From Myxococcota bacterium (lineage in GTDB: Bacteria; Myxococcota_A; UBA9160; UBA4427), in the NCBI GenBank assembly GCA_965250285.1, contig OZ252299.1, positions 3,808,001-3,872,000 on the forward strand: a stretch of 64,000 nt of DNA, given 5' to 3'. Below the pieces are notes generated by a model. That model saw nothing but the letters and a program-made list of their open reading frames with translations, searched no databases and was not told where the DNA came from. A program made the translations under genes and the position numbers. Shown here one piece after another: positions 1,393 through 23,394 of the stretch. Each line of letters opens with the position of its first letter. The first letter of the stretch is position 1.

Positions 1393-2382
1393 CTAACGCT
1401 GGCACTGCTCGCCAGGGATCCCGATGCACCCGGGCGGATCGCTCGGCCCCGGATCGAAGTCGGGTACGCTGAACAGGCCGCAGGTCGTCGGATCGCAGAC
1501 GAGCGTGCGGTCGATCGTTTCGGTCTTGAACTCGAACGCCTTGGGCGTCGGCAGCGGATGCGCGAGCGACGTCGGCTCGCCGTCGGGAATGTCTCGCTCC
1601 ACGATGTCGGCGAGCAGCGTCGTGCTCTCGTCGCGCGAGATGTCGTTCAGCGCGCTGACGCGGTACCGCCGCTGCGACGCGACTCCGCCGAGCCCTTCGA
1701 TGGTCGAATCGTCGATCTTCTCGATGCTGCCCGGGGCCCCGCCGACCGGGACGCTCACCCACTGCGACGTGTTCAGGAAGACCCCTCGCTTGTGGCGAGC
1801 ATCGTTGCTCAACACGAACGCTCGGTCGTCGAGACTCGTCACCAGCGTGGTCCCTTCGCCCGTGTTCACTTCGACGTGGATCGTGCTCGAGCGCGGCCGA
1901 ACGATGGCCGATGGCGTGCGAATCTCGGTCGCCGCATCGGATGCATCGAGTCGCGTGGTGAACCGCACATGGCCATCTTCGACCTTCACGAGGGGCCCTT
2001 CGGCGCCGTCACCTGGCCGGAGGCTCAGCTTCGTGCTCGGTCCCATCTCGATGAGCAAGGCCTCGCCGTGCACCAGCGCGCAGCCGGAGCTCAGACCGGT
2101 CTCGACCTCGATCGCGCCCGAGGCCGGCACATCGACGCTCCGACCGACCGCGAGCTCGCTCCCGTCGGCGCGCACCGTGCCGAACGCCGCCGTCACGACG
2201 GTCTCTGCGGCCATCGCCGAGAGTGCAGTGCCCGAACCGACGAACCAGCAGACCAGACCAAGTGCGACCCGCGCGAGTTGTCGGCTGCAGAGTCGGGCAG
2301 CCGCCGAGCGACCGGCGCGAGCCTCTTCACACGCTTCGTCGCCGGCGCGGATCCGACGATCTCGCCTTCTCAGAAGTTCCAT
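1393..2382 (-). CDS. Exported FecR-domain protein with Cys-containing C-terminal tail
   Basis: FecR-like beta-rich pattern (VETGLSS...IEMGPSTKL...VEDGHVRF...EIRTPSAIVRPRSS); hydrophobic signal segment VALGLVCWFVGSGTALSAMA; ATG at 2382 overlaps the end of the upstream gene; start uncertain. Confidence 0.7.
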   Translation of the reverse strand: MELLRRRDRRIRAGDEACEEARAGRSAAARLCSRQLARVALGLVCWFVGSGTALSAMAAETVVTAAFGTVRADGSELAVGRSVDVPASGAIEVETGLSSGCALVHGEALLIEMGPSTKLSLRPGDGAEGPLVKVEDGHVRFTTRLDASDAATEIRTPSAIVRPRSSTIHVEVNTGEGTTLVTSLDDRAFVLSNDARHKRGVFLNTSQWVSVPVGGAPGSIEKIDDSTIEGLGGVASQRRYRVSALNDISRDESTTLLADIVERDIPDGEPTSLAHPLPTPKAFEFKTETIDRTLVCDPTTCGLFSVPDFDPGPSDPPGCIGIPGEQCQR

Positions 2383-3959
2383 GTGAAATACGCTCCGAAG
2401 AGATGTCGATCGTACTCGAGCACGTCGATCTGTGAGCTGCGGAAGTTCATGTTCGCCGCGAGGGCCACCGAGAGCTGCCGCCACAGCGGTACGTTCAGAT
2501 CGAACGAGAGATTGTGGACGTTCTCGTGACGCCGCACGCCCTGGCCGGGCGCCGGGGGTTGGGTCCCGATCTGCTCAGGGAAGATGCTCGGGTTCTGGTA
2601 CCAGAGCCGCGCGTAGCGATAGAGGGTCGAGAAGGTCATGCCGCGCCACGGCAGAAGCACGCCACCGCCGACATTCAGCTCGAGCCCGCGGTAGTCCCAC
2701 TCGGTGCCGTCCGTCGAGCGACTGAGGTAGGCCGCTCCGAAGCGCGCAGACGAGAAGAGGCCGTCGAACATCAGAATCTGGTTCAGACCGACGGCCTGGC
2801 GGTTGCCGTTCTGATCGAGCTCGGGCGAGACGGGCGGCAGGAAGTAGTCGTCGAGCTGAATCTGGTAGAACGCCTGCGTGACGCCGAGATCACCGGTGCG
2901 CAGGTTCACGATCGGCTGAATCGAGTGCGTGCCACGGAACTTCTCAGTGAAGTCGAGCAGCGTGATGCTGTAGTCGTACCGCACACCGAAGCTCGCGTTC
3001 ATGTAGTCGTAGGTCGCCAGAGCGCGGGCGACATGCGTCTGCTCGTTCACGAGGCTGTCGTTCGCGTAGCCCGCCAAGAAGCCATCGTAGCCGGCGCGCA
3101 GCGTGAACCCGCCCCCGCGATACGCGTCGACGAGCGCGCGCAGGCGGAACGAGCCGAGCACGTCGGCATCGCTGTCGATCACCTTACTCGCGGCGGTCGG
3201 GTTCGTGTCGGCTTCGATGCCCGCCGTCGCGCTCACGAACCAGATGCGGCTCTCGGTGAGCGGGGCCATCTGCTCCCTCAGCGCGCGGGCCGAGTTGCCG
3301 AGCGGATGGCCGGGCGAATCCTCTGCCAGATCCCCGAACGCAGCCGACGAGGCGTAGAGGTTGCCGAGCGCGATCTGAGCCAGCCCCGTGTAGTAGAGCG
3401 ACTCCCGCTCGAGTCCGGGGTCGAGGCGACGCGCCTCCTCGAGGTCACCGATCGCCTTGCGCGGGTCTCCGGTTCGGTACTCGGCGATGCCCGCGTACAG
3501 CAGCAGGTGCGGGTCGCTGGGGGCCATCGTGAGCGCCTGTCGCGCCTGGGTGCGGGCCGCGTCGTTCTGTCCGGCGAGCAGAAGGGTCTCGGTGAGCACG
3601 GTCTGCGTCGCGACGTCGTCGGGATCGAGCTCGGCGGCCCTCCGCAGGGACGCGATGGCGTTTTCGGTTTCGCCCTGCTTGCGCGCGATCAGGCCGAGGT
3701 AGACGTGGGCGTCGGCGTCTGCCGGGTTCTGCTCGACCACGGCTTCGAAGGCTCTTCGCGCCGCGACATCGTCGCCGGTCCCGTACGCGGCGACGCCCCG
3801 GTTGTAGAGCAGCTCGGTCTGATCGGAGGCCGACGCAGATGTGACACACAGAAGCGTCAACAGAACGAACGCAGTCAGCACGCGCACAGCGGTGCGGCGG
3901 CGACGTCCCGTCGCGAATGGGCTTCGCTGCTGCGCTGCGTAGACCGGCACGGGCGACAT
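2370..3959 (-). CDS. TPR-repeat protein with C-terminal outer-membrane beta-barrel
   Basis: Signal peptide (VLTAFVLLTLLCVTSASA), about 5-6 TPRs (e.g. DAHVYLGLIARKQG, LLLYAGIAEYRTG), then amphipathic strands ending GAYFTWNF (terminal Phe, BamA-type signal); start uncertain. Confidence 0.8.
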   Translation of the reverse strand: MSPVPVYAAQQRSPFATGRRRRTAVRVLTAFVLLTLLCVTSASASDQTELLYNRGVAAYGTGDDVAARRAFEAVVEQNPADADAHVYLGLIARKQGETENAIASLRRAAELDPDDVATQTVLTETLLLAGQNDAARTQARQALTMAPSDPHLLLYAGIAEYRTGDPRKAIGDLEEARRLDPGLERESLYYTGLAQIALGNLYASSAAFGDLAEDSPGHPLGNSARALREQMAPLTESRIWFVSATAGIEADTNPTAASKVIDSDADVLGSFRLRALVDAYRGGGFTLRAGYDGFLAGYANDSLVNEQTHVARALATYDYMNASFGVRYDYSITLLDFTEKFRGTHSIQPIVNLRTGDLGVTQAFYQIQLDDYFLPPVSPELDQNGNRQAVGLNQILMFDGLFSSARFGAAYLSRSTDGTEWDYRGLELNVGGGVLLPWRGMTFSTLYRYARLWYQNPSIFPEQIGTQPPAPGQGVRRHENVHNLSFDLNVPLWRQLSVALAANMNFRSSQIDVLEYDRHLFGAYFTWNF

Positions 3960-4360
3960 CTTCGTGGGAACGGTCGCGCTTGTCGAGGACCCGCCTCGGA
4001 CCCACGCGGGGCCTGCGCACCCGAAGCGGCGACCCGGTTGCCGCCAAGCTGCACGAGAGCTGCCCACGCGACACGTCGGCGCGTCGATGCCACAAGACTT
4101 GGCCGGAATTGGGAATTCCCGCACGCGATTCGTGTCGAGGCGCTCACTCGCGCCCGGATCCGCCCGCCACAGCTTCGTGCCGGTCGGATATCATCGGGCG
4201 TCCGTTCGGGGCCCCCTCCAGCCGAACATCCCCCTCTCCTTCGTGCGTCGGTGTGGCTGGCATCACGCTGCTCTCGGGATCTCATCTTGGGTGATCCGCC
4301 CATGACATCCGCCGATCCGACGCGACCGTGCTACGGCATGGCTTCGCTCGGGGACGCCCG

Positions 4361-7300
4361 ATGAAGAGGGCGCTCCGGCGGACGCGTGTGCGCTCTTTGA
4401 CCGACGGGTCTGCAACCAGACGCCGAGCCGTCGAGCGACACGTCCTTCTCTGGTTCGTCTTGCTGACGGTCGGGCTCGCAACGGCGCAGAGCGCTGCGGC
4501 GCAGTCGGTCACGCTCAGCGCCGCCCCCGACACGATGCCGACCGGCGGCACCAGCACGCTCACGTGGGTCACGGCCGACGTCGACACGTGCACCGCGTCG
4601 GATGGCTGGACGGGCGCGCTCGATGCCGCGGGAGGCAGTCAGGGCGTCTCGCCGACCACGACGACGCTCTACACCGTGACCTGCGATGGGCCCGGCGGAC
4701 AGGCTGTCGACTCGGCGACGATCACCGTGGGCCCCGCAGTCACCGCGACCCTCGGCGCCGACGTCGACACGATCCCTCTCGGCGGCACCAGCCAGCTCAC
4801 CTGGAGCAGCACCGACGCCACGAGCTGCATCGGAACGAACTTCGACACCGCCGGTGCCGCGAGCGGCAGCATCAGCGTGACGCCCGCGACGACCACCCTC
4901 TACTCGGTGACCTGCACGGGGACGGGCGGCGCCACGAGCGCGCCCGCGCAGCAGACCGTCAGCGTCGGTCCGGCGGTGACGGCCACGCTCGGTGCCGATG
5001 TCGACACGATCCCGCTCGGTGGCACCAGTCAACTGACGTGGAGCAGCACGGACGCCACCAGCTGCGCAGGCACGGGCTTCGATACGGGCGCCGCGACGAG
5101 CGGCAGCGTCGCCGTCGCCCCGACGACGACGACGCTGTACTCGGTGGTGTGTACGGGGGCCGGCGGTGCGACGAGCCCTGCAGCGGAACAGACCGTGACC
5201 GTCGGAGCCGCCGTGACGGCGACGCTCGGCGCCGATCTCGCAACGCTCCCGCTCGGCGGCAGCAGTCTGCTCACGTGGAGCAGCACCGACGCAACCAGCT
5301 GCATCGGCACGAACTTCGACACGGCCGGCGCGACGAGCGGCAGCGCGCCCGTCACGCCGCTGACGACGACGCTCTACTCGGTGGTCTGCAGCGGTGCAGG
5401 GGGAGCCACCAGCGCACCGGCGGAACAAACCGTGACGGTGGGGGCGGCGGTGACGGCCAGCCTCGGCGCAGACGTCGATACGATTCCACTCGGCGGCAGC
5501 AGCCTGCTCACCTGGAGCAGCACCGACGCGACGAGCTGCACCGGGACGGGCTTCGAGACCAGCGGCGCGACGAGCGGCAGCGTCGCCGTCGCGCCCACGA
5601 CCACCACACTCTACGCCCTCGTCTGCACCGGCGTCGGCGGCGCCACGAGCAGCGCGGCCGAGCAAACGGTCACGGTCGGCGCGGCGGTCACAGCGACGCT
5701 CGACGCCGACTTCCTGAGCGTGCCGCTCGGCGGCACGAGCCAGCTGACCTGGAGCGGCGCCAACGCGGACTCCTGCACGGGCACCAACTTCACAACGGGT
5801 GACGCCGCAGCCGGCAGCGTCGACGTCTCACCGACGGCGACCACGGTGTACTCGATCACCTGTACGGGTTCGGGCGGCGCGACCAGCAATCCCGTCGACG
5901 TCACGGTGAGCGTCGACCCGGCCGTCTCGGCCACGCTGATCACGACACCGAGCGCAGTTCCCCTCGGTGGGTCGGCCGACCTGACGTGGAGCAGCACGAG
6001 CGCGACGAGCTGCACGGGCACGGGGTTCTCGACCGGCGGTGCACCGAGCGGCAGCATCTCGGTCGCGCCCGCCACCACCACCGCCTACTCGGTGACGTGC
6101 GCGGGCAATGGCGGCGCGTCGAGCGCGCCGGCCGACGGTTCGCTCACGATCGGCCCCCCGGTGACCAGTAGCCTCAGCGCGAACCCTACGACCATCGCGC
6201 TCGGTGGATCGAGCGGTCTCACCTGGGGCAGCACCGACGCGATCAGCTGCACCGGCACCGGCTTCTCGACCGGCGGCGCCGCCAGTGGGACGGTGTCGGT
6301 GTCGCCCGGATCGTCGACGATCTACTCGGTGACGTGCGTCGGCGCGGGCGGTGCGACGAGCAGCGCCGCCACGGCGAGCGTCGCGGTCGGAGGCGGCGTC
6401 ACCGCCTTCCTGACCGCCGACTTCGACGCGATCCCACTCGGCGGCTCGAGCCTGCTCTCGTGGAGCAGCTCGAACGCGACCAGCTGCACGGGCACCGGCT
6501 TCACGACCGGCGGTGCCGTGGCCGGCAGCGTGCCGGTCTCGCCCACCTCGACCACGGTCTACGCGGTCGACTGCACGGGCTCGGGTGGTGCGAACGACTC
6601 GGCCGAGTTCACGGTCGCGGTCGGGCCGGCGATCTCGGCCGCGCTCACGGCGACGCCCGACACCATCGCACTCGGTGGAGCGAGCAGTCTCGAGTGGAGC
6701 AGCTCGAACGCCACCAGCTGCACCGGCATCGGCTTCTCGACGGGGGGCGCGGTCAGCGGCCAGATCGACGTGTCACCGACGACCAGCTCGGCGTACGGCG
6801 TGACCTGCACGGGCAACGGGGGCGCCAACAGCCCCATCGCCCAGGCGACCGTGACCGTGAGCGGACCGGTCGCCGCGTCGCTCAGCGCGACGCCCGCGGC
6901 CATCGCGCTCGGCGGATCGACGACGCTCGAGTGGAGCGGCGTGAACGCGACGAGCTGCGTCGGCAGCGGCTTCGACACGGGCGCGGCCGCGAGCGGATCG
7001 GTGGTCGTCACACCGACCGCAGACAGCGACTACTCGGTCACGTGCACGGGCGCCGGCGGTGCAACCAGCGCCCCGGCCTCCACGTCGGTCACCGTCGGCG
7101 CGGCCGTCGGCGCGACGCTCACCGCAACGCCCGGCCAGATCGCCCAGGGCGGAACGAGCACGCTCGACTGGAGCGGCGACAACGCCACGAGCTGCGTCGG
7201 TGTCGGCTTCTCGACGGGCGGCGCACCGAGCGGGAGCATCGACGTCGCGCCGGCGACGACCACCGCGTACTCGGTGACGTGCAGTGGTGCTGGCGGCGCC

Positions 7301-10300
7301 ACGAGTCCGGTGGCGAATGCCACCGTGACGGTCGGTGCTGGCGTCACGGCCTCGCTCGTCGGCAACCCGACATCGATCGCGTCGGGGGGCTCGAGTGAGC
7401 TGACGTGGGGCAGCACGAACGCCACGAGCTGCACCGCGTCGAGCGCCCAGGATGCCGCGTGGAACGGCGCTCGCTCGCCGGGCGGCGGGACCGTCACCGT
7501 CACGCCAACGGTCGACTCGACCTACGCGCTGACGTGCACGGGCGCGGGCGGCGCGTCGAGCCCGCCAGCGACGACGACGATCACGGTGGGCGCCGCCGTG
7601 ACCGCTTCGCTCGCAGCGAACCCGACCGCGATGCCGCTCGGCGGGACGAGCCAGCTCACTTGGGGCAGCACGAACGCGACAAGCTGCACGGCGTCGAGTA
7701 CGGACGACCCCGCCTGGAACGGCTCGCGGGCAGTGGGCGGCGGCACCCTCGACGTCACGCCAACGGCCACCGCGACGTACACGATCGTCTGCGCGGGCGC
7801 GGGCGGCGCCGAGAGTGCGCCGGCGAATGTGACGGTCGTCGTCGGCTCGGCCGTCACCGTCGCGCTGACCGCCACGCCCGAGTCGATCGCACCGGGCGGC
7901 TCGAGTCAGCTGACGTGGAGCAGCGGGAGCGCGACGAGCTGTACGGGCACCGGCTTCGACACCGCCGGCGCCCCGAACGGCTCGGCCGAGGTCTCGCCGA
8001 CGACCACGACGAACTACTCGGTCTTGTGCACCGGCGCAGGCGGGGCGACGAGCCCGAGCGCTGCGGCCAGCGTCACCGTGGGCTCGGCCGTCGCGGCCAC
8101 GCTCACCGCCACGCCCTCCTCCATCGCGCAGGGCGGCTCGAGCGAGCTCTCGTGGAGCAGCGTCAACGCGACGAGCTGTACGGGCACCGGCTTCGCGACT
8201 GGGGGCGCGACGAGCGGCAGCGTGTCGGTCTCACCGATCTTGACCACGGCGTACACGCTGACGTGCGAAGGTGCCGGTGGCGCGACGAGCCCGGTGCAGA
8301 ATGCGAACGTCTCAGTTGGCCCGGCCGTCACGGCGAGCCTCGATGCGACCGCGCTCTCGATCGCGCTCGGGGGGTCGAGCGAGCTCTCGTGGAGCAGCAC
8401 CAACGCGACGAGCTGCACCGCCTCGAGCGCGCAGGATCCGAGCTGGAGCGGCGGGCAGCCCATCGGCGGCGGCACGCTCACCGTCTCGCCCACGGTGACG
8501 TCGACGTATACGCTGACCTGCGAAGGCGCGGGCGGTGCGACGAGCACGCCTGCCAGCGTGACGATCGCCGTGGGCGAAGCGGTGACGGCCACTCTCGGCG
8601 CGACACTGACCTCGATCGCGCAGGGCGGTACGAGCGACCTCACCTGGGGCAGCGCCAACGCGTCGAGCTGTGTGGCATCGAGCGCCGAAGACGCCAGCTG
8701 GAACGGTGCGCGCAGCGTCGCGGGCGGCACGGTCACCGTGACGCCCACGGTCACGTCGACGTACCAGCTCGTCTGCGCAGGCGCAGGCGGCGCGTCGAGC
8801 ACCCCGGCCACCGTGACGATCAGCGTGGGCGGCAGCGTCAGTGCGCAGCTGAACGCGGCCCCCTCGATCATCGCTGCCGGCGGCTCGAGCACCCTCACTT
8901 GGTCGAGCTCGAATGCCACTTCGTGCTCGGGCACCGGCTTCTCGACCAGCGGCGCGACGAGCGGCAGCGTCTCGGTCTCTCCCACGACGTCGACGACGTA
9001 CTCGATGTCGTGCTCGGGTGAAGGCGGCGCCGGCAGTGCGCCGGTGAACACCACCGTCACGATCGCTCCGCTTCCGACCGTCACGCTCACGGCGACGCCC
9101 TCGACGATCGCGGCCGGCAACTCGACGACGCTCGACTGGGTCGTGAGCGAAGCCTCGAGCTGCATCGCGTCGAGCGACGAAGACCCGAGCTGGGCGGGCG
9201 CTCGCTCTCCCACCGGCGGATCGCTCGGCGTGACGCCCGCCGAGACCGCGACCTACACGCTCTCGTGCACCGACGCGTTCGATCAGCAGGTCGAGGACAG
9301 CGTCACCGTGATCGTCTCGGCCGGGCCCACGGTCGAGCTCGTCGCGAGCCCCGAGACGATCGCACCGCTCGGCTCGAGCAGTCTCAGCTGGTCGGTGGAC
9401 AACGCGGTGAGCTGCACTGCGTTCAGCGCGCAGGATCCCGCGTGGACGGGCAGCGTACCCGTCGACGGCGGCCCCGTGCTCGTCACGCCGCAGACGAACG
9501 CGACCTACACGCTGACCTGCACCGACGCCGTGGGTCAGGCCCAGAACGCCGAAGCAACGGTCAACATCACGCCGACGGTCACCCTCACGGCCGACCCCAA
9601 CAACGTGCTGCTCGGCGGTTCGACGGCGCTCGCCTGGGCGACGACGAACGCCACGTCATGCGACGCTTCGGGTGCGCTCGACTGGTCAGGAACGGTCTCG
9701 ACCGGACCAGCGGCAGCGCTCGTCACGCCGACCGTCGACACGGTCTACACGATCACATGCACGGGCCCGGGCGGCGTCGCGATCGATACGGCCGCCGTGA
9801 CCGTCAGCTCTTCACCCGGGGATCCGCCGCCGACGGTGATCCTCAATGCCGATCCGCTCGAAGTCGGCAACGGCGGGTCGAGCACGCTCAGCTGGGTCAC
9901 GACCGATGCGGTGAGCTGCACGGCATCGGGCGCCGGCGACTGGAGCGGTTCGGTTCCCATCGGCACGGCGAGCCGGGTGGTTCGGCCCACCGCCCCCGAG
10001 ACCGTGTACACGCTCACATGCGCGAACAGTGTGGGTGCAGAGCGCTCCGCCGACATCACGGTGCGGGTGGCGCCCCCTCCGGCGCTCGAACTGAGCGCCG
10101 ACCCGGTTCGTCTGGCCGCGGGCGCTTCGACCCAGATCAACTGGTCGCCCACCGACGCACAGAGCTGCTCGGCCAGCGCAGGATGGAGCGGGGCGAAGAC
10201 ATCGGACGGCGACACCGAATCGATCGTGGTGAACGAGACCACGACGTTCACGCTCGAGTGCACGGGCTTGAGCGGCACCGTCAGCCAGAGCGTGACCGTG

Positions 10301-11494
10301 ACCGTCGTCCCCGAGCCGACCCTGTCGTTCACCAGCACGAGAACGCTGATGGCCGCCGGTGGACGCACGCGGCTTTCCTGGAGCACCACGGACGTCGACA
10401 CCTGTGTCGCCGGGGGCAGCTGGCAAGGTGCGCGCGACCCGAGCGGCACGTCGGCGTGGCTGACGCCGCTCGAGACGGCTGACTATACGCTGACGTGCAC
10501 CGGCGTCGGCGGCGTCGCCTCGGAGACGCTGCAAGTGGTCGTCGACCCCGAGCGCGCCGTCGGCCGTCTGGCGAGCTGGGGCGAAGACGTCGAGGCGTTC
10601 CGCAACGACCTCGTCGTCGTGGCGAGCTTCGACGACGGCATCCACATCGTCGACATCTCGGACCCGACCTCGCCGACGATCGTCGACGCCTGGGATCCGG
10701 TCACGTGCATCGATGAGGAGATCTACGGCCCCGAAGTCGTCGACTTCATGGTCGAGGACGTCGAGATCGATGGCAGCCTCGCCTATCTCTCGACGGGTCC
10801 GTGTGGCGTGTGGATCGTCGACCTCGACGCGCTCGGCGACGACCCCGTCGCGATCTTCGACACCGAAGGCTGGACCGAGGCCGTCGAGCTCGCCGGCGAT
10901 ATCGCCTATGTGGCCGACTACAACGGCGGCGTCGTCGTGCTCGACGTGAGCGATCCGGCCGATCCGTTCGAGCTGACGCGCGTGGGCTTCGACGACCCGG
11001 ACATGGGCGCGGTGCTCGACATCGACGTGAGCGGCGACACCGCCTACGTCGCAGCCGATGGCGGGCTGCGTGTGCTCGACGTCAGCGATCCGAGTCTCGC
11101 CATCGAGATCGGTCGGTTCGATACCGAATCGATCCCGGGTGCGATCCCGCAAGACGTCCTCTACGTCGACGGGGTCGTCTACATGCCGATCTGGACGGCG
11201 GGTCTGCTGATCCTCTCGGCCGACGACCCGACGGCGCCGGTGCAGGAGGACTCGATCTCCACCGCGTACGCGATGTACGAAGTGAAGGCCGAGGGCACGA
11301 CCTTCTACGTCTCGGAGGGCACCGAAGGCGTGCGTGTCCTGCGCATCACGACGCCGCAGGATCAGACCGAGCTCGAGCGGATCGACCCGGGCAAGTTCGT
11401 CTGGGGCATCGAGCGCACCGGGGGCCGCACCGTCGTCAGCTTCGGTGACCTCGACGACGACAGCGGCGGTCTTCAGGTCATCATCGATCGCTGA
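4361..11494 (+). CDS. Giant secreted repeat protein (putative adhesin): 25 Ig-like repeats plus C-terminal LVIVD beta-propeller
   Basis: Signal peptide ending ...GLATAQSAAA-QS; 25 copies of LxWxxxxAxSC...YxxxCxG counted in the translation; C-terminal GIHIVDISDP, GVVVLDVSDP, GLRVLDVSDP repeats. Confidence 0.85.
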   Translation: MKRALRRTRVRSLTDGSATRRRAVERHVLLWFVLLTVGLATAQSAAAQSVTLSAAPDTMPTGGTSTLTWVTADVDTCTASDGWTGALDAAGGSQGVSPTTTTLYTVTCDGPGGQAVDSATITVGPAVTATLGADVDTIPLGGTSQLTWSSTDATSCIGTNFDTAGAASGSISVTPATTTLYSVTCTGTGGATSAPAQQTVSVGPAVTATLGADVDTIPLGGTSQLTWSSTDATSCAGTGFDTGAATSGSVAVAPTTTTLYSVVCTGAGGATSPAAEQTVTVGAAVTATLGADLATLPLGGSSLLTWSSTDATSCIGTNFDTAGATSGSAPVTPLTTTLYSVVCSGAGGATSAPAEQTVTVGAAVTASLGADVDTIPLGGSSLLTWSSTDATSCTGTGFETSGATSGSVAVAPTTTTLYALVCTGVGGATSSAAEQTVTVGAAVTATLDADFLSVPLGGTSQLTWSGANADSCTGTNFTTGDAAAGSVDVSPTATTVYSITCTGSGGATSNPVDVTVSVDPAVSATLITTPSAVPLGGSADLTWSSTSATSCTGTGFSTGGAPSGSISVAPATTTAYSVTCAGNGGASSAPADGSLTIGPPVTSSLSANPTTIALGGSSGLTWGSTDAISCTGTGFSTGGAASGTVSVSPGSSTIYSVTCVGAGGATSSAATASVAVGGGVTAFLTADFDAIPLGGSSLLSWSSSNATSCTGTGFTTGGAVAGSVPVSPTSTTVYAVDCTGSGGANDSAEFTVAVGPAISAALTATPDTIALGGASSLEWSSSNATSCTGIGFSTGGAVSGQIDVSPTTSSAYGVTCTGNGGANSPIAQATVTVSGPVAASLSATPAAIALGGSTTLEWSGVNATSCVGSGFDTGAAASGSVVVTPTADSDYSVTCTGAGGATSAPASTSVTVGAAVGATLTATPGQIAQGGTSTLDWSGDNATSCVGVGFSTGGAPSGSIDVAPATTTAYSVTCSGAGGATSPVANATVTVGAGVTASLVGNPTSIASGGSSELTWGSTNATSCTASSAQDAAWNGARSPGGGTVTVTPTVDSTYALTCTGAGGASSPPATTTITVGAAVTASLAANPTAMPLGGTSQLTWGSTNATSCTASSTDDPAWNGSRAVGGGTLDVTPTATATYTIVCAGAGGAESAPANVTVVVGSAVTVALTATPESIAPGGSSQLTWSSGSATSCTGTGFDTAGAPNGSAEVSPTTTTNYSVLCTGAGGATSPSAAASVTVGSAVAATLTATPSSIAQGGSSELSWSSVNATSCTGTGFATGGATSGSVSVSPILTTAYTLTCEGAGGATSPVQNANVSVGPAVTASLDATALSIALGGSSELSWSSTNATSCTASSAQDPSWSGGQPIGGGTLTVSPTVTSTYTLTCEGAGGATSTPASVTIAVGEAVTATLGATLTSIAQGGTSDLTWGSANASSCVASSAEDASWNGARSVAGGTVTVTPTVTSTYQLVCAGAGGASSTPATVTISVGGSVSAQLNAAPSIIAAGGSSTLTWSSSNATSCSGTGFSTSGATSGSVSVSPTTSTTYSMSCSGEGGAGSAPVNTTVTIAPLPTVTLTATPSTIAAGNSTTLDWVVSEASSCIASSDEDPSWAGARSPTGGSLGVTPAETATYTLSCTDAFDQQVEDSVTVIVSAGPTVELVASPETIAPLGSSSLSWSVDNAVSCTAFSAQDPAWTGSVPVDGGPVLVTPQTNATYTLTCTDAVGQAQNAEATVNITPTVTLTADPNNVLLGGSTALAWATTNATSCDASGALDWSGTVSTGPAAALVTPTVDTVYTITCTGPGGVAIDTAAVTVSSSPGDPPPTVILNADPLEVGNGGSSTLSWVTTDAVSCTASGAGDWSGSVPIGTASRVVRPTAPETVYTLTCANSVGAERSADITVRVAPPPALELSADPVRLAAGASTQINWSPTDAQSCSASAGWSGAKTSDGDTESIVVNETTTFTLECTGLSGTVSQSVTVTVVPEPTLSFTSTRTLMAAGGRTRLSWSTTDVDTCVAGGSWQGARDPSGTSAWLTPLETADYTLTCTGVGGVASETLQVVVDPERAVGRLASWGEDVEAFRNDLVVVASFDDGIHIVDISDPTSPTIVDAWDPVTCIDEEIYGPEVVDFMVEDVEIDGSLAYLSTGPCGVWIVDLDALGDDPVAIFDTEGWTEAVELAGDIAYVADYNGGVVVLDVSDPADPFELTRVGFDDPDMGAVLDIDVSGDTAYVAADGGLRVLDVSDPSLAIEIGRFDTESIPGAIPQDVLYVDGVVYMPIWTAGLLILSADDPTAPVQEDSISTAYAMYEVKAEGTTFYVSEGTEGVRVLRITTPQDQTELERIDPGKFVWGIERTGGRTVVSFGDLDDDSGGLQVIIDR
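4500..10545 (+). repeat. Intragenic tandem array of 25 units of about 237-250 bp (79-83 aa)
   Basis: GADVDTIPLGG encoded near 4754 and 4991 (237-bp period); each unit carries two Cys and a conserved Trp and Tyr. Confidence 0.9.
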
Positions 11495-11530
11495 GCGGGT
11501 TTCGGCGCGCTGCGCCGATGCGCCGCGACG

Positions 11531-13687
11531 TCAGAACTCGATCACGCCGGTATCGGGCATCACCTGGATCAGCTGCTCGATCTCGACGCCACCGGGCAGC
11601 TCGGCCACGAACGTGTGCAGGCCGGGTGCGATGACGAGATCGGCGATCGGCGCGACGCCGATGCGCTCGCCGTCCACGCTGAGCGTCGTGCCCGGCTCGA
11701 GCTCGACCCGCACCCGGGCATAGGCCGCTGCCGGCGCGCCGGGATCGGCCGCGTCGCGCGGGCCGATCACGATGGCCGTGACCGAGCCGTCGGCGGCCTC
11801 GCGGGCGGGCTCATTCGTCGACGCGGGCGTCGCAGATCGATCGCGCGCCGCCGGCGTTCGCTCGGGCTTCGCTGCGGGCGCTCTTCGCGCGGCGGCGGGT
11901 GTCGCCGGCACCGGCGCGCGAGCGGGCGCCGCCGCTGCACTGGGCGTGGCCAGCGCGACTGCGCGCGCCGTCGACGGCGCCGTCGACTCGGGCGAGGTGG
12001 TCATCGCGGGCGACGGGGCGACCGCCGCACCGAGCGCCGGCTTCGACTCGGGCCGGCTCGGCGCCGGGCGCGGAGGCGCAGCCGGCGCGACGGGCGCACG
12101 CGCGAGCGGGCCCGCCATCGGCGGCGCCAGCGCCGCGAGCGGACGGTCGGGCGCCAGGATCATTCGACGCGTGGGCAGATCGTGCGAGAGCAGCGGCAGC
12201 GAAGCGGATCCCTCGGCCTCGATCTCGACCGGCTCGGGCGATGCGGAGGCCGCCTCGTCGACAGCCGCCTCGGCGGTCGCGAGCGTGGGCGCGGCGGGGT
12301 CGCGATCGACGCGGCCCGCCATGTATCCACCCATGACCGCCGCAACCACCACGGCCGCCATGAGGATCCACTGCCGCTTCGCTGCCCCGATCGGTCGCGA
12401 CGGCTCCGGAGCCGCCGCCACGGACGCGGCTTCGCCTCTTTCTCCTGTTGTCGTCGTCGTCGTTGCCGACGCGGCATCGGCCACGCGCGGCGAGGCGGGC
12501 GGATCGGCCAGGCCGGTGGGGGGCGACGCTTCGGTCGACGGGGCCGAGGTGCGCGCGGTCGCCGGCGGCGACGACGCGCCGACCTGCGGCGCGGGGCTCA
12601 GCGGCCACGTGGAGGCAGCAGACGTCAGCGATGACGCCGGCGGCGGGGCCGAGGTGCGGTCGACGTCCGTTGACGCCGGGCGCTGTGTGTCCGGCGCTGA
12701 CTGATCTCGGCCCTGCGCGCCCTCGTCGGTCGCCGTCTCGTCGGGCGGCACGAGCGGCCCGATCCCCGTCTTGAGAAAACCGGGGGGAAACAGCTCGTGC
12801 ATCGGGTCCGACGCCTCGGCGCTGCGACGCGCGTCGCCCCCGAGGAGCCCGCCGCCGAGGCTTCCCTGGGCGTTCCAGACGTCTTCGAACGGCTGCGTGC
12901 GCGGGCGCGCGGGCGAAGCGCCCGGGTCCGCCGCGCCGTCATAACGGTCGGGAATCGGTTCGCCCGCCGCGAGCCTGCGCAGCGTCTCGTAGGCGAGCGC
13001 GTTCACGCGCCGCGGGTTGCCACGCGCCCCCTCGGTCACGTAGCGCATGGCTGATTCGTCGAACTTGTCCTCGAGTGCGGCCGCGTCGGAGGACTCGCCG
13101 AGATGACGACGGATGTACTCGGCGGTCTCCTCCGCATCCATGGGCGTATCGAAACGGACGGTCACGACGGCCGCTTCAGCTCCGATCTCGCGTTCGAACG
13201 ACGCCGCGTCGGCCTCATCCTCGGTCACCGCGAACACGACGCAGAGATCACCGCGTGCGCGCGTCGCGGCGCGGACCAGCTGCCGCGACGATGCGACCGG
13301 CGCATGCGTGGCCTGATCGACGATCACGAGCACGCGCCGCCCACGCGCCGCCGCATTGCGCGCGGCCAGCGCGAGTGCAGCCGAGGGATCGCCCTCGTCT
13401 TCGCGCTCGACCTCGAGCTGGTCGAGCACGCGGTGTGAGATCTCCATCGAGGGCGAAGGCGAGACCGCGATCCGCGCGACTCGCCACGAGCCCGCGAATC
13501 GCTCGTCGAGCACCGCGAGCAACATGCTCTTGCCGATCCCGGCCGGTCCGCGCAGAACGACGGCCGGCGCCACTTCGGAGACGAGCCGCTCGAGCTGGCC
13601 CAATGCGTCGTCGCTCGCGGGGCGCGAGACGTACACGCGCGCGTCCACGGCGACTTCGAAGGGATTGATCACGTTCGGGAGGCTCAC
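11531..13687 (-). CDS. ExeA/GspA-like AAA+ ATPase with Pro/Ala-rich linker, single TM helix and C-terminal PEGA-like domain
   Basis: N-terminal NPF, Walker A GPAGIGKS, Walker B LVIVDQA, ETAEYIRRHL, GNPRRVNALA; TM WILMAAVVVAAVMGGYMAG; C-terminal PGTTLSVDGERIGVAP...PGLHTF; GTG start at 13687 or 13672. Confidence 0.8.
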   Translation of the reverse strand: MSLPNVINPFEVAVDARVYVSRPASDDALGQLERLVSEVAPAVVLRGPAGIGKSMLLAVLDERFAGSWRVARIAVSPSPSMEISHRVLDQLEVEREDEGDPSAALALAARNAAARGRRVLVIVDQATHAPVASSRQLVRAATRARGDLCVVFAVTEDEADAASFEREIGAEAAVVTVRFDTPMDAEETAEYIRRHLGESSDAAALEDKFDESAMRYVTEGARGNPRRVNALAYETLRRLAAGEPIPDRYDGAADPGASPARPRTQPFEDVWNAQGSLGGGLLGGDARRSAEASDPMHELFPPGFLKTGIGPLVPPDETATDEGAQGRDQSAPDTQRPASTDVDRTSAPPPASSLTSAASTWPLSPAPQVGASSPPATARTSAPSTEASPPTGLADPPASPRVADAASATTTTTTGERGEAASVAAAPEPSRPIGAAKRQWILMAAVVVAAVMGGYMAGRVDRDPAAPTLATAEAAVDEAASASPEPVEIEAEGSASLPLLSHDLPTRRMILAPDRPLAALAPPMAGPLARAPVAPAAPPRPAPSRPESKPALGAAVAPSPAMTTSPESTAPSTARAVALATPSAAAAPARAPVPATPAAARRAPAAKPERTPAARDRSATPASTNEPAREAADGSVTAIVIGPRDAADPGAPAAAYARVRVELEPGTTLSVDGERIGVAPIADLVIAPGLHTFVAELPGGVEIEQLIQVMPDTGVIEF

Positions 13688-16423: not shown

Positions 16424-17731
16424 TCAGCCCGAATCGGCGTTCTTCGGTGAGGCCGACTCTTCGACCGGTCGACCCGTGCGGAGCGTGCTGATCTCGACGA
16501 TGCCCGGCCGAAAGAACGTGCCCCAGAGCCAGTCGAAGGCGATCTGCAATCGCCGGGCGAGGCTTGGCATCTTCGACCAGTAGATCGCGCGCCACATCAG
16601 GTAGGCCGGCCAACCGGTCACATGTCGGCCGAACGGGTTGCCCACGGCGCGGCCGCGGCCGACCGCCGCGAACATCCCCTTCGTGTGATAGCGGAAGGGC
16701 TTGGGCTGACCCCCAGCGATCACCGCCGCCAGGTTCTCGGCGAGCTGATGCGCCTGCCGCACGGCGAACTGGCCGAGGGTCGGCGAGATGCTCCCGTCGA
16801 ATGCGTTCGGCACCGCCGCGCAGTCGCCGAGGGCCCAGACGTCTTCGCGCCCCTCGACCCGCATCTCGCCCGAGACGACGACGCGTTTGCGGTCCATCGG
16901 CAGCGACGCCTTGGCCAGCAGGGGTTGCACGTTGGTCCCGACCGCGCAGACCACGGTTCCGGCCTCGAGCGAATCGCCGTCGCCGAACTCGATGCCGTGC
17001 GCCGTCACGGCCTTCACCGAGGCGCGATTGCGCACCTCGACGCCGCGGTCTTCGAGATCGCGCTTTGCGCGGGCCGACAGATCTTCGGGGAGCGGCCCGA
17101 GGATGCGTGGGCCGCCGTCGACCAGCGTGACGCGCCGATCCGCCGGACCGAAGCGTTCGTAGAAGTCGGTGGCCTCGATGAGGAGGTCCACGATCGACCC
17201 GGCGACCTCGACGCCCGTGAAGCCGCCGCCGACCACCGCGAAGGAGAGTCTGCGCGCGCGCTGCGCGGGATCGGGCTCGTCCTCGGCCATCTCGAGCTGT
17301 TGGATGACGTGATTGCGGAGCGCGAGCGCGTCGCCGAGGGTCTTGAGCGGCCAGGCGTGGTGTTCCATCCCCGGCACGATCGTGAGGTCGGCCGCCTGGC
17401 CGCAGGCGAGCACGAGGTGGTCGTACGGCTCTCGGAGGGTCTGGCCGCTCGGGCTCTCGTAGACGACCTCTCTGGCGTCCAGATCGATGTCGAGGATTGC
17501 GGCGGTTCGGCAGGACACCCCCTGGACCATCTCGCGCACGGGCCACACGACGTGAAGGGGGTCGACGGCCGCACCCACGACCTCGGCCAGCAAGGGCGTG
17601 AAGACGAAGTGGTTCTCTCGACTGAACACGAGGATCTCGTAGCCCGCAGGCAGCTTGCGGCGGAGATCACCCGCCAGCGTGGCGCCGGCAAAGCCGCCAC
17701 CGATGATCACGATCCGCCCCGACCCCGACAT
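16424..17731 (-). CDS. ndh: Type II NADH:quinone oxidoreductase (NDH-2) family
   Basis: Two dinucleotide-binding motifs GGGFAG and GGGFTGVE; FTPLLAEV; WALGDCA; QFAVRQA; C-terminal GWPAYLMWRAIY. Confidence 0.85.
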   Translation of the reverse strand: MSGSGRIVIIGGGFAGATLAGDLRRKLPAGYEILVFSRENHFVFTPLLAEVVGAAVDPLHVVWPVREMVQGVSCRTAAILDIDLDAREVVYESPSGQTLREPYDHLVLACGQAADLTIVPGMEHHAWPLKTLGDALALRNHVIQQLEMAEDEPDPAQRARRLSFAVVGGGFTGVEVAGSIVDLLIEATDFYERFGPADRRVTLVDGGPRILGPLPEDLSARAKRDLEDRGVEVRNRASVKAVTAHGIEFGDGDSLEAGTVVCAVGTNVQPLLAKASLPMDRKRVVVSGEMRVEGREDVWALGDCAAVPNAFDGSISPTLGQFAVRQAHQLAENLAAVIAGGQPKPFRYHTKGMFAAVGRGRAVGNPFGRHVTGWPAYLMWRAIYWSKMPSLARRLQIAFDWLWGTFFRPGIVEISTLRTGRPVEESASPKNADSG

Positions 17732-17877
17732 GTGTGCAAGCTACTCCATCTCGGCCGGTCGGCACTCGAACGCGGCTTCTCAGTCGACCGTTTCGCTGAT
17801 TCGAGCGCGCAGATCCGTGTATATTCGCAGGCGGCGTGGGCGGCCTCGAACGTCGCCCCTCGACGAGTGATCCTATC

Positions 17878-18918
17878 GTGCACCCCCGAACGGCGCGTCG
17901 ATCTCTGCACCGTGTGGCCGTGGGCGCGACCACCGCCCTGACCGCACTCCTGCCCGCCGTCGTCGTGGCCGAGGACGCCGCGCCGGGCTCGACGAGTGTG
18001 TTCGCGGCGGCCTCGGTCCCCGCCCAGGGCATCGTCGAGTACAGCCATCTCGTCATCGGCATCTGTGCGGCGATCTTCGTCGTCGTGATGAGCCTGATCG
18101 CCTTCACGGTCGTGCGCTACCGCGGACGACCGGGCGACGACGACCGCGAGCCCGCCCAGGTCTACGGCTCGAATCAGCTCGAACTCGCTTGGACGGTCGT
18201 GCCGATCATCATCGTGTTCGTGCTCTCGCTGGTCACCGTGCGCACGATCCTCGAGCTCCAGATCGACGAGCAGCCCGAGGGCTGGATGCCCGTGACCGTC
18301 GTGGGGCACCAGTGGTGGTGGGAGTTCGAGTATCCCGAGTACGGCTTCACGACGGCGAACGAGCTGCATCTGCCTTCGGGCCGGCCGACGTTCCTCAACC
18401 TGCAGAGCGCCGACGTCGTGCACTCGTTCTGGGTCCCCCAGCTGGCGGGCAAGACCGACGTGATCCCGAACCGTGAGAATCACATGTGGGTCGAGCCGAC
18501 CGAAGAAGGCGTGTTCGTCGGTCAATGTGCGGAGTACTGCGGCACGCAGCATGCGCACATGCTCTTGCGGGTCACTGTGCACACGCCCGAGGGTTTCGAG
18601 GCGTGGGCCAGAGCGCAGGCGCGCGAGGCCAGCCACGCGCAGGGCGTCGAGGCGGGGCGACAGATCTTTCTCGAGACGGCGTGCATCAACTGCCACACCG
18701 TGCGGGGCACGGTCGCCAACGGCCGCTTCGGCCCCGACCTCACGCACCTGATGGAGCGCCAGACGATCGGCGCCGGCGTCGCGCCGAACGACGCCGAGAA
18801 CCTCCGCGCCTGGGTGGCCGACCCCGACCACCTCAAGAGCGGCGCGCTGATGCCCGCGATGGGGCTGAACGATCACGAGATCGACGCCGTCGTCGCGTAT
18901 CTGATGACGCTGGAGTAG
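17878..18918 (+). CDS. ctaC: Cytochrome c oxidase subunit II with fused cytochrome c (caa3-type)
   Basis: LELAWTVVP, GHQWWWEFEY, DVVHSFWVP, CuA motif CAEYCGTQHAHM, heme c motif CINCH; start uncertain (17836-17912). Confidence 0.95.
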   Translation: MHPRTARRSLHRVAVGATTALTALLPAVVVAEDAAPGSTSVFAAASVPAQGIVEYSHLVIGICAAIFVVVMSLIAFTVVRYRGRPGDDDREPAQVYGSNQLELAWTVVPIIIVFVLSLVTVRTILELQIDEQPEGWMPVTVVGHQWWWEFEYPEYGFTTANELHLPSGRPTFLNLQSADVVHSFWVPQLAGKTDVIPNRENHMWVEPTEEGVFVGQCAEYCGTQHAHMLLRVTVHTPEGFEAWARAQAREASHAQGVEAGRQIFLETACINCHTVRGTVANGRFGPDLTHLMERQTIGAGVAPNDAENLRAWVADPDHLKSGALMPAMGLNDHEIDAVVAYLMTLE

Positions 18919-18925
18919 CCGAGCG

Positions 18926-20611
18926 ATGACGACACTCGACCCGCCGGTGCAGACCCCGATCGAAGCCACGCGTACGCAGCGCGCGGGATGGACCGAGGTG
19001 TTGCACGAATGGGTCGTGACGGTCGACCACAAGAAGCTCGGCATCATGTACATCACGTGCGGGGTGGTGTTTCTGGTCATCGGCGGGCTCGAGGCCACGG
19101 CGATGCGCCTGCAGCTCTTCTTCGCCGAGAACGATCTGATGGAGCCCGATACGTTCAATCGGCTCTTCACCGTGCACGGTACGACGATGGTCTTCTTCGT
19201 CGGCATGCCGATCGTCACCGGCTTCGGCAACTACCTGCTGCCGCTGATGGTTGGCGCCCGAGACATGGCCTTCCCACGACTCAACGCGTGGGGCTTCTGG
19301 ATGTTCCTGTTCGGTGCCCTGCTCTTCTATTTCAGCTACATCGGCAGCGAGGGCCTCTACGGCGCCGGCTCAGCACCCGACGTCGGCTGGTTCGCCTACG
19401 CCCCCCTCACGGGCAAGGCCTTCTCGCGGGGCAACGCGACCGACTACTGGATCCTCGGCATTCTCATCTCGGGCTTCGGCAGCATGTCGGGCGCGATCAA
19501 CATGATCACCACGGCGCTCACGATGCGGTGCCCGGGCATGACGCTCGCGAAGCTGCCGCTGTTCGTCTGGATGATGATGATCGTGTCGTTCCTGATGCTG
19601 ATCGCCCTGCCGCCCCTCACGGCCGCCCAGGTGATGCTGCTCTTCGACCGGTTCCTGGGGGCTCACTTCTTCGATACCCAAGCCGGCGGCGACGCCGTGC
19701 TCTGGCAACACTTCTTCTGGTTCTTCGGGCACCCCGAGGTCTACATCCTCATGCTGCCCGGCTTCGCCTACGCGTCCGAGATCATCCCCGTGTTCTCGCG
19801 CAAGGTGATCTTCGGCTACCCGATCATGGTGGCAGCGACCGCCGCGATCGGCGTGCTCTCGCTCGGCGTGTGGGCCCACCACATGTTCACCGTCGGCATG
19901 AGCCAGCCGCTCAACGTCTGGTTCGCGCTGGCGACGATGCTCGTCGGCGTGCCGACCGGCATCAAGATCTTCAACTGGATCGGTACGATGTTCGGCGGCA
20001 AGATCCGCTTCCGGCCGCCGATGATGTTCTGCATCGCCTTCCTCTTCCAGTTCGTGATCGCCGGGCTGACGGGCATCATGCTCGCCGCAGCCCCGTTCAC
20101 CTGGCAGCTCTCCGATTCGTACTTCGTGGTGGCGCACTTCCACTACGTGCTGATCGGCGGCCTCGTCTTCACGATCTTCGGCGCCATCTACTACTGGTTC
20201 CCGAAGATGTCCGGCCGCATGGTCGACGAGCGACTGGCCAAGGCACACTTCTGGCTCTTCGTCGTCGGCTTCCAGATCTCGTTCAACACGATGCACGTGC
20301 AGGGGCTGCTCGGGATGCCGCGCCGGGTCTACACGTACCCGGCCGACCGAGGCTGGGAGATCTGGAATCAGATCACGACGCTCGGCATCGCGTTCCAGAT
20401 CATCGGCCTGCTCTTCTTCGTCGCAGCGATCCTGCTCGCGCTGCGCAAGGGTGAGCCGGCGGGCCCCGACCCGTGGGACGCCTGGACGCTCGAGTGGTCG
20501 ACGAGCTCACCGCCGCCGGCGTACAACTTCGAAGAGATCCCCGAGGTCAAGAGCCGTCGACCGCTGTGGGACGCCAAGCACCCCGAAGACCCGGATTGGT
20601 TGTATGAGTAG
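18926..20611 (+). CDS. ctaD: Cytochrome c oxidase subunit I, A1-type
   Basis: TVDHKKLG, HGTTMVF, GHPEVY (A1 signature), WAHHMF, VAHFHY, MPRR. Confidence 0.97.
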   Translation: MTTLDPPVQTPIEATRTQRAGWTEVLHEWVVTVDHKKLGIMYITCGVVFLVIGGLEATAMRLQLFFAENDLMEPDTFNRLFTVHGTTMVFFVGMPIVTGFGNYLLPLMVGARDMAFPRLNAWGFWMFLFGALLFYFSYIGSEGLYGAGSAPDVGWFAYAPLTGKAFSRGNATDYWILGILISGFGSMSGAINMITTALTMRCPGMTLAKLPLFVWMMMIVSFLMLIALPPLTAAQVMLLFDRFLGAHFFDTQAGGDAVLWQHFFWFFGHPEVYILMLPGFAYASEIIPVFSRKVIFGYPIMVAATAAIGVLSLGVWAHHMFTVGMSQPLNVWFALATMLVGVPTGIKIFNWIGTMFGGKIRFRPPMMFCIAFLFQFVIAGLTGIMLAAAPFTWQLSDSYFVVAHFHYVLIGGLVFTIFGAIYYWFPKMSGRMVDERLAKAHFWLFVVGFQISFNTMHVQGLLGMPRRVYTYPADRGWEIWNQITTLGIAFQIIGLLFFVAAILLALRKGEPAGPDPWDAWTLEWSTSSPPPAYNFEEIPEVKSRRPLWDAKHPEDPDWLYE

Positions 20612-21206
20612 TGCGCAGCCCGACATTCATGCGGGGCACGGTCTCCCGGGCGCAGCGCATGGCGACGGGCGCGGGCGCGTCGGCGTCGCGCTGCTGATCC
20701 TCTCCGAGTCGGCGTTCTTCGCGGTGTTTCTCGCGGCCTACGGGTTCTACATCGGCAAGAGCCTGCATGGCCCGATGCCCGCCGACGTGCTCGAGTTCCC
20801 CGCGCTCGGCACGATCTGCCTGCTCTCGAGCAGCGGCACGATCATGCTCGCGACCCGCGGCCTCGCGGCCGGCGCCATCGGCCGGTTCGCGCTCTGGCTG
20901 GCCGTGACGTGGGCACTCGGCTCGGTCTTCCTCGCGGTGACCGCGATCGAGTGGGGTCACCTCTTCTCGGCAGGGCTCACCATTCGCACCAACCTGTTCG
21001 GAACCACCTTTTTCTCGCTGGTCGGCTTCCATGCGGCCCACGTCGCGATCGGCGTGGGGATCATGACGCTGCTCCTCGCGCTCAGCGCGCGTGGCGTCAT
21101 GCAAGCTGCGCATACCGAACGGGTCGAGCTCTTCTCGTGGTACTGGCATTTCGTCGACGTGGTCTGGATCGCGGTGGCCACGCTCGTCTACGTGATCGGC
21201 CGATGA
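20604..21206 (+). CDS. ctaE: Cytochrome c oxidase subunit III (short form)
   Basis: LILSESAFF, LVGFHAAHV, WYWHFVDVVW; ATG overlaps the end of ctaD. Confidence 0.92.
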   Translation: MSSAQPDIHAGHGLPGAAHGDGRGRVGVALLILSESAFFAVFLAAYGFYIGKSLHGPMPADVLEFPALGTICLLSSSGTIMLATRGLAAGAIGRFALWLAVTWALGSVFLAVTAIEWGHLFSAGLTIRTNLFGTTFFSLVGFHAAHVAIGVGIMTLLLALSARGVMQAAHTERVELFSWYWHFVDVVWIAVATLVYVIGR

Positions 21207-21228
21207 TGATCGGCGTGCGGAAGAGACC

Positions 21229-22098: not shown

Positions 22099-22841
22099 CC
22101 CGGCTGCCCATGATCGCGTGCACCGTCACCGGGCTCGCGCTTCTCGCGTGCGGCGACCTGCCGGGCAAGCCGACCGAAGCCGATCGCTTCGTGCATCCGC
22201 AAGAGATCGTCGACTTCGACACGCTCTATGGCCTGCACTGCTCGGGCTGTCACGGCGAGGAGGGTCGACTCGGTCCGGCCCAGGCGCTGAACGACCCCGT
22301 CTATCTCGCCTACGCGCCCGACGAGGTGATGGTCTCGATCGTCCGCGACGGCGTGGCCGGCACGTCGATGCCGGCCTTCGGCATCGAGCGAGGCGGGCCG
22401 CTCACGGCCGCCCAGGTCGAGGCGCTGGTCGGCGGCCTGCGTGAGCGGTGGCGGGGGACGCCGCCCGACGACGTGCCGCCGTACCGTGCGACGGCTTCGG
22501 CCGAACCGGTCGACGAGCGCGAGGGGGCGCGCGTGTTCGAGCAGTTCTGTGGACGCTGTCACGGCGCCCATGGCCGGGGCACGAGCCAGGCCGGTGCCGT
22601 CGTCGACACGACCTACCTTTCGCTGCGCAGCGACCAGGGCCTGCGCACGACCGTCGTGGTCGGGCGGCCCGACCTCGAGATGCCCGACTGGCGAAGCCAT
22701 TCGCGCCACGGCGCGATGACCGAGCCCGAGATCGACACGGTCGTCGCCTGGATGATCTCGAAACGCAGCGCCTATCCCGGGCAGCCCTACCCCGATGACG
22801 CCCCGGCCAACGCAGCGCGCGCAGACGGAGGAATGCGCTGA
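22095..22841 (+). CDS. Diheme c-type cytochrome lipoprotein
   Basis: Lipobox LLA-C; CSGCH and CGRCH heme motifs, each with distal Met (SMP, EMP); GTGA overlap. Confidence 0.9.
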   Translation: MTRLPMIACTVTGLALLACGDLPGKPTEADRFVHPQEIVDFDTLYGLHCSGCHGEEGRLGPAQALNDPVYLAYAPDEVMVSIVRDGVAGTSMPAFGIERGGPLTAAQVEALVGGLRERWRGTPPDDVPPYRATASAEPVDEREGARVFEQFCGRCHGAHGRGTSQAGAVVDTTYLSLRSDQGLRTTVVVGRPDLEMPDWRSHSRHGAMTEPEIDTVVAWMISKRSAYPGQPYPDDAPANAARADGGMR

Positions 22842-23380: not shown

Positions 23381-23394
23381 CGGGCGGCGTTTCG

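Follow-up and report, generated by a model that had tools for sequence, protein, structure and literature searches.

Within a 64,000-nucleotide stretch of the genome of an uncultured Myxococcota bacterium—the window, positions 3,808,001 to 3,872,000 of contig C1 of G000, a 6.25-Mb, single-contig genome that is 95% complete—a Slam-like outer-membrane barrel and a FecR-like secreted protein lie beside a giant secreted protein that has no membrane anchor. The new element here is a signalling-uncoupled variant of the Slam-like and FecR pair: in sister lineages, the pair sits with signalling genes and keeps a self-cleavage motif, and in this one, it has neither. What might such a pair be doing next to an anchorless giant? 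We suggest, at a probability of roughly 0.4, that the FecR-like protein is a plug threaded through the barrel and that the giant, exported through type II secretion (the T2SS), is docked on the resulting complex, with the binding steps being those that we infer. That suggestion grew out of the gene layout and domains, the constant pairing of barrel and partner, the loss of motif and output genes in one clade, the giant's missing sorting tail, and a GspD secretin in the genome. (Throughout, G denotes genomes, L loci, and P proteins.)

The four open reading frames stand where a first-pass annotation of the window, made from its letters alone, had put them. On the reverse strand are the FecR-like gene (1393..2382) and the barrel gene (2370..3959); the giant gene (4361..11494) is divergent from them on the forward strand, and an ExeA-like NTPase gene (11531..13687, reverse strand) converges on it. 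The overlap reported for the first pair is there as well: 13 nucleotides between the end of the barrel gene and the FecR-like frame, counted from that frame's first ATG, the true start not being fixed. Between the two divergent units is an intergenic region (3960..4360) common to the barrel operon and the giant gene, in which we found no sigma-70-like site or promoter consensus. The same divergent layout of barrel and giant recurs in G001, G018, G027, and L092. As had been noted, no FecI or TonB receptor adjoins the locus, nor does a CHASE2 partner; its neighbours are GST and HlyD-family genes.

The partner is a secreted protein with a signal peptide, a beta-solenoid, a 27-residue polar helix, and a Pro/Cys-rich tail, an assignment drawn from Pfam, a structural model, and fold matching. 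Its match to Pfam FecR (E 0.002) falls under the cut-off that its orthologs pass, and its model (pLDDT confidence 82.5, the tail being low-confidence) matches the periplasmic beta-solenoid of PupR (6ovk, E 2e-6). The predicted helix (1591..1671; residues 183–209 of P0013, pLDDT 70–86) comes after the beta domain and before the tail, and it is a candidate for a segment that would span the barrel. The beta domain begins right after the signal peptide, and we found neither a transmembrane (TM) segment above threshold nor an anti-sigma domain in the chain.

The barrel protein has 529 residues. Its model, built from 27 sequences (pLDDT 89.7), has a TPR arm and 14 predicted strands, the count of Slam against which the annotation had proposed to check it, with the barrel part encoded at about 2370–3251. 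The barrel's best structural matches are CymA (Z 22.2) and OmpG (Z 20.7), and that of the whole chain is BcsC. The Slam-like character claimed for it has thus held up in the predicted strands and in homologs that match PF04575 (SlipAM): L049 does so at 30.1 bits against a cut-off of 22, over 281 of 288 positions, and L036 and L038 score just under that cut-off. The window barrel gives no PF04575 match at E<=1, its sequence profile matched none of the solved structures, and no Slam chain appeared in its fold-match lists, results with which membership of the Slam family is still compatible. We call it Slam-like, and its place in Slam/DUF560 is suggested by likeness, not by a PF04575 match of its own. 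The profile matches 65 of the 401 genomes of the phylum that were searched (G000, 63 of the 77 others of its class, and 1 of 323 outside the class); the range beyond the phylum was only lightly sampled. We found no paper that joins DUF560 with FecR, although supplementary co-occurrence tables of papers on type XI secretion systems (T11SS) could still list FecR neighbours.

The pairing itself proved constant. We surveyed 80 stretches around the best-scoring barrel matches—not a random draw—of which 79 contained the barrel domain; 3 of them run into a contig edge, leaving 76 loci with room for a downstream gene, and six-frame searches supplemented the gene calls (kinases in L036 and L041, FecR in L039). 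Directly downstream of the barrel is a FecR-like gene at 52 of the 76 and a tail-only secreted protein at the other 24, so that one or the other is present in 76 of 76. Read by eye, the tail-only partners are short, secreted proteins that lack a FecR domain yet have a cysteine pair and a tail rich in Pro. Their homology with the tails of FecR proteins in the largest clade (hhalign 95%, E 4e-8) makes the tail, and not FecR, the constant element in that clade.

The partners differ in a motif. FecR-type proteins cleave themselves at a Gly-Thr (GT) site, as described in PMC13719327, and we equated a position in our family with that site by alignment to 4m0h and the motif of that paper; in the window, family alignment puts Ser-Ser there (1885..1890). 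In a barrel tree that used 37 of the 80 rows, the window barrel and those of G001, G018, and G027 form a clade (support 100/99) nested within an 18-row clade (98/97) that has kinase/CHAT loci, and the CHASE2 loci form the neighbouring clade. GT is kept in 10 of 10 members of the kinase/CHAT clade and 11 of 11 of the CHASE2 clade, and 17 of these 21 have an output gene within 4.5 kb; it is absent from 4 of 4 in the window clade, 2 of 2 in a second giant-linked clade, and 23 of 26 in the large clade, and none of the other 31 FecR loci outside the two signalling clades has an output gene. Counted over all 79 barrels at the same distance, CHASE2 genes occur at 10 loci, CHAT genes at 6, Ser/Thr kinases at 6, and extracytoplasmic function (ECF) sigma genes at 11 (8 directly downstream), with some output gene at 28. 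The annotation had allowed that the barrel/FecR pair might belong with partners such as CHASE2 cyclases, and this is true of the sister clades, which sit with CHASE2 cyclases or kinase/CHAT genes, but not of the window clade. G000 itself yielded no CHASE2 candidate (single contig, 95% complete, controls positive); it has three CHAT genes, all unlinked to the locus.

Two of the signalling arrangements deserve a description of their own. At L048, L128, L129, L131, L142, L145, L153, and L160, a barrel of one clade precedes genes for a tail-only peptide, an ECF sigma, a putative anti-sigma factor, and a subtilase (zf-HC2 was present in the two anti-sigma candidates tested and S8 in the two subtilases tested); this is possibly a TonB-independent cell-surface signalling system. 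At L034, L035, L036, L037, L040, L041, and L106, a Ser/Thr kinase with DUF4384, the barrel, and the FecR-like gene face a TPR-CHAT protease gene that converges on them; as an output for the barrel/FecR pair, this kinase/caspase-like set looks undescribed.

The giant is, as annotated, a protein of 2377 residues with one N-terminal hydrophobic segment only, ending LQVIIDR with no anchoring signal. It consists of a signal peptide, 25 tandem immunoglobulin-like repeats (4493..10543) of 78–86 residues, Thr/Ala/Ser/Gly-rich, with two Cys each—50 paired repeat cysteines in all—and an acidic LVIVD beta-propeller (10544..11491; 65 Asp/Glu vs. 12 Lys/Arg). The repeats match no Pfam family; they fall in unnamed clusters (0.95–0.96), one with I-set on 12% of its members, and have low value for recognition. 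They occur in 4 of 61 genomes and one metagenome contig, and in 4 of 4, the giant is divergent from a barrel of the window clade, with unrelated flanking genes. The giant of G018, spread over three contigs, totals about 3,400 residues in pieces.

Of 193 genomes of the order, 8 hold propeller relatives at E<=1e-25. In G026 and G031, the relative comes after barrel and FecR and shares their strand; in G044, a more distant one is divergent from an operon of kinase, barrel, and FecR. All three have other stalks and carry a PEP-CTERM tail right after the propeller. Tails of this kind (VPEP, TM segment, and basic tail) end the related propeller proteins at L036, L038, L070, L072, and L172, and none was found on the window's giant. 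Because PEP-CTERM directly follows the propeller in relatives, the propeller is the anchor-proximal base, and its tail is missing in G000, G018, and G021. Could a frameshift have removed the anchor? The giant's stop codon is covered by contigs from three runs of one study (X1 being a possible source), all of them identical there, and the ortholog in G018 has the same anchorless end, so a frameshift is ruled out and the missing anchor is real.

PEP-CTERM proteins are also the usual company of these barrels: a PEP-CTERM gene lies upstream of the barrel at 44 of 76 loci (including L036, whose giant is two genes from its barrel), compared with 10 of 857 other called genes. G000 has 61 PEP-CTERM matches over cut-off and a GspD secretin over cut-off, so a T2SS is present. 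It also has a second copy of the pair (L050:7411-10883; about 2177400-2180900 on the same contig), in which a PEP-CTERM gene, a barrel, and a FecR-like gene are transcribed the same way beside a gene for an L,D-transpeptidase; within the class, this is the most frequent arrangement.

A further clue to the partner comes from its family. A first FecR profile (A2) drew only ubiquitin-like noise from the PDB; a 53-sequence profile has as its best match 5IX9 (E 1.2e-7), the periplasmic pore plug by which, according to PMC5550230, the MpIBP adhesin is kept in TolC. Of the 53 members, 25 match retention_LapA (NF033682) weakly at E<=0.1 (best 2.9e-10), the second-copy protein of G000 among them at 2.4e-8. 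Four other proteins, P0015–P0018, fuse FecR-domain heads to long, beta-rich C-terminal regions, which we take by eye to resemble TbpB-like lobes (no Pfam match); P0015 matches retention_LapA at E 3.5e-6.

From these pieces, we would assemble the following device. Barrel and FecR-like protein would form an outer-membrane plug-and-thread complex with no linked signalling output, the beta domain remaining periplasmic as a plug that rests on the TPR arm and the helix and tail passing through the lumen of the barrel. The giant would leave the cell by the general T2SS, the likelier route because Slam1 moved only unfolded TbpB in the work reported in PMC9090332, most predicted T11SS cargo end in a C-terminal beta-barrel (PMC8406197; 10.1101/2024.09.26.615229), and sorted myxobacterial proteins are described as using the T2SS (PMC11980579). 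Once outside, it may be bound by the tail or by loops of the barrel, most plausibly at its propeller, since that is the anchor-proximal end in relatives. Because the pair adjoins a giant without its relatives' membrane anchor, it is likely a surface tether rather than an export channel. The structural half of this picture, a 14-stranded barrel and a FecR-type beta-solenoid followed by a 27-residue helix, is predicted by models.

Much can be said against this docking arrangement, and we would rather say it ourselves. The correlation between GT and output genes rests on few independent evolutionary events, and GT is also lost where the giant keeps its PEP-CTERM tail (G026 and G031). Between the window clade's tail and the tail-only motif, no homology is detectable (score −6.2, inside the range of shuffles; hhalign 11.5 vs. 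10.7 shuffled), so that the clade shares only its layout with the tail-only loci. Neither the window's FecR-like protein nor its clade gives a retention_LapA match, every family member scores below the 50 bits that this model requires, and the Foldseek matches listed for the partner model do not include 5IX9. The upstream PEP-CTERM genes are less telling than their number, 35 of the 44 being one inherited family, and LVIVD proteins with sorting tails also lie away from such barrels (L072, L171, and L176). Finally, the giant may be a free protein: when TraA of Myxococcus xanthus lacks its sorting tail, the T2SS simply releases it, in the account of PMC11980579.

What, then, of the NTPase gene, the fourth of the set? 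Its product has an ExeA-like NTPase domain (AAA_22 match), a Pro-rich linker, one TM segment at residues 440–458, and a small C-terminal PEGA-like domain. The AAA+ and TM parts of its annotation stand; the "PEGA" domain has no Pfam match, and the label is taken from its VDG..G.xP motif. Walker A is intact, and Walker B reads VIVDQ: of 12 aligned rows, only that of L081, a canonical paralog, has the Glu, the subfamily having DQ, DH, or DD instead of DE. The ExeA/GspA proteins have a periplasmic peptidoglycan-binding domain. There is no such domain here (no Pfam or NCBIfam match) and no Walker B Glu, and the protein is not an ExeA equivalent; our search for a paper linking ExeA and PEGA in Myxococcus found none.

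Its four closest orthologs are in G018, convergent with the giant; in G021, one gene from the giant; in G027, where the contig ends just past the gene that lies between the two in G021; and in G007, where the C-terminal domain is a different one and neither giant nor barrel is close by. It travels with the giant in three genomes (G000, G018, and G021), and no ExeA-like ATPase domain occurs in any of the 79 surveyed barrel stretches, which reach only about 7 kb. The gene is linked in the window lineage, and it is neither a core part of the barrel module nor an ExeA; its product is probably either an accessory partner in the inner membrane or a neighbour inherited along with the rest. G000 holds seven paralogs. 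More distant NTPase-TM genes without the Walker B Glu stand at a pheT-ihfA-MerR-like locus in several families (L073, L074, L075, L076, and L080), the copy of G000 there having no C-terminal domain, and L070:5723-7429 in G031 encodes the same C-terminal domain with no recognisable ATPase, four genes past a propeller giant.

The NTPase gene matters most to the best of the rival explanations, trans-envelope signalling, which we consider rather unlikely. Here, the barrel and FecR-like protein would detect a signal from outside, perhaps the giant itself, and relay it to the NTPase-TM protein or to unlinked kinase/CHAT proteins, as NsrA, a receptor barrel of the outer membrane placed upstream of CHASE2 cyclases by PMC7529298 and PMC13001267, does to CyaK. 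The outputs of the homologous clades, from CHASE2 to ECF sigma, invite this idea, as do the receptor topology of the NTPase-like protein, its travelling with the giant in G018 and G021, the three unlinked CHAT genes of G000, and a fused FecR-TPR-barrel protein of NsrA size that matches the family profile (P0014). It has to live, however, with a lost GT motif, no adjoining output gene, the domain's absence from the fetched barrel stretches, the G007 ortholog with its other C-terminal domain and neither giant nor barrel close by, and a Walker B that lacks its Glu.

How firmly do the four genes belong together? Co-occurrence in relatives, which the annotation had asked of them, is borne out, and GC gives no sign of a recent genomic island. 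The four-gene order is intact only in G000 and, pieced together from three contigs, in G018, because the giant's C-terminus was not found in G001 or G027, nor the NTPase gene in G001 (83% complete, with contig breaks within the giant). About 12 kb from the ATPase-like gene of G018 (L175:9874-11556) is a recombinase-like gene ending in tRNA-like sequence, which hints at an integrated element.

In a further explanation, the genes would be co-regulated neighbours only, the barrel complex having its own envelope job, the giant being a free, T2SS-released matrix protein, and a common divergent promoter region keeping the genes together. The released TraA fits, at least six unrelated secreted families adjoin these barrels, and the four-gene block is present in one family only. 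We still think it unlikely, slightly more so than signalling: the block persists in three genera at 42–60% identity with flanks that differ even within a genus, and propeller giants with three different stalks are found at barrels of one supported clade.

Least probable of all is dedicated type XI export, in which the barrel would translocate the unfolded giant with the FecR-like protein as chaperone or adaptor: the predicted 14-stranded TPR-barrel does resemble Slam, cargo genes typically adjoin Slam genes (PMC8406197), and other T11SS cargo types may exist because cluster 3 systems rarely co-occur with a C-terminal barrel (10.1101/2024.09.26.615229), but the giant ends in a propeller and not an 8-stranded barrel, its repeats hold 50 paired cysteines when Slam1 moved only unfolded TbpB (PMC9090332), HrpB failed with a GST fusion (PMC8406197), a giant is missing from most barrel loci, related propeller giants are also found away from such barrels, the constant partner is the FecR/tail protein, and a T2SS is present. 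The annotated idea of the giant as the barrel's cargo is not supported.

Returning to the plug and its docked giant, one might be bolder and suppose that Slam-like barrels of this class are holders of a threaded partner peptide and not cargo channels, the device being a sensor when its self-cleaving FecR head is wired to CHASE2, kinase/CHAT, or ECF outputs and, once the motif is lost, a split retention module that tethers a giant adhesin in place of a PEP-CTERM anchor; we offer this as a speculation that we ourselves doubt. Elsewhere in the window, 16424-27178 holds an NADH dehydrogenase-like gene followed by genes for cytochrome c oxidase subunits, cytochrome c, Rieske protein, and cytochrome b, along with a CtaG-like/ferredoxin fusion, all named from reading their translations.

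Why should so small a unit, a 485-residue barrel and a 274-residue partner, be of interest? It bears on how anchorless, Sec-exported giant proteins stay on Gram-negative cells, and cargo has been tested for only a few of the thousands of barrels in the T11SS family. Nature has supplied the contrast: sister clades with a cleavage motif and an output gene vs. a window clade with neither. It may tie the FecR domain to a LapA-type plug, and it links these barrels to PEP-CTERM proteins, whose outer-membrane route is not settled.

The locus resembles several known systems and differs from each. With ExeA/GspA and the XrtA/PEP-CTERM-associated ATPase (TIGR03015), the NTPase shares the AAA_22 domain, a weak TIGR03015 match, and a single TM segment; it differs in scoring 28.6 bits against a cut-off of 324.5 (a far closer match, L081, lies elsewhere in G000), in its Walker B and missing peptidoglycan-binding domain, and in lying outside any T2SS or exopolysaccharide operon. 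With the Slam/DUF560 T11SS (PF04575), the barrel shares an N-terminal TPR arm, a predicted 14-stranded barrel, and an adjoining gene for a secreted partner, but the locus has no cargo with a TbpB-like C-terminal 8-stranded barrel, the giant ending in an LVIVD propeller and the partner in a Pro/Cys tail; no TonB or TonB receptor is near, and the constant partner is a FecR-like or tail protein. NsrA-CyaK/CyaD1/D2 of Sinorhizobium meliloti and the CHASE2-FecR-TPR clusters reported in Campylobacterota (PMC9239204) likewise join an outer-membrane barrel with FecR-type and TPR parts, and 10 of our homologous loci adjoin CHASE2 genes, whereas the window barrel (about 290 residues) is separate from FecR, that of NsrA spans residues 600–1200, G000 has no CHASE2 match, and the window partner has no GT motif. 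The anti-sigma factors FecR, PupR, and FoxR have the same periplasmic beta-solenoid fold (6ovk and 4m0h), of which only about 150 of PupR's 213 residues align with the window partner; unlike them, the partner has a cleavable signal peptide, no cytoplasmic anti-sigma domain, TM segment, or GT motif, and no adjoining ECF sigma factor or TonB transducer. There is, last, the LapA/MpIBP retention module, a RIN plug in TolC. The window proteins are Sec-exported with no type I secretion system or RTX repeats, two genes, and not one chain, supply plug and adhesin, the proposed pore is a monomeric 14-stranded barrel, and the window partner itself gives no direct match; nonetheless, the family profile matches 5IX9 and, weakly, retention_LapA over its first 70 or so residues, and after the matched region comes a helix of roughly membrane-spanning length.

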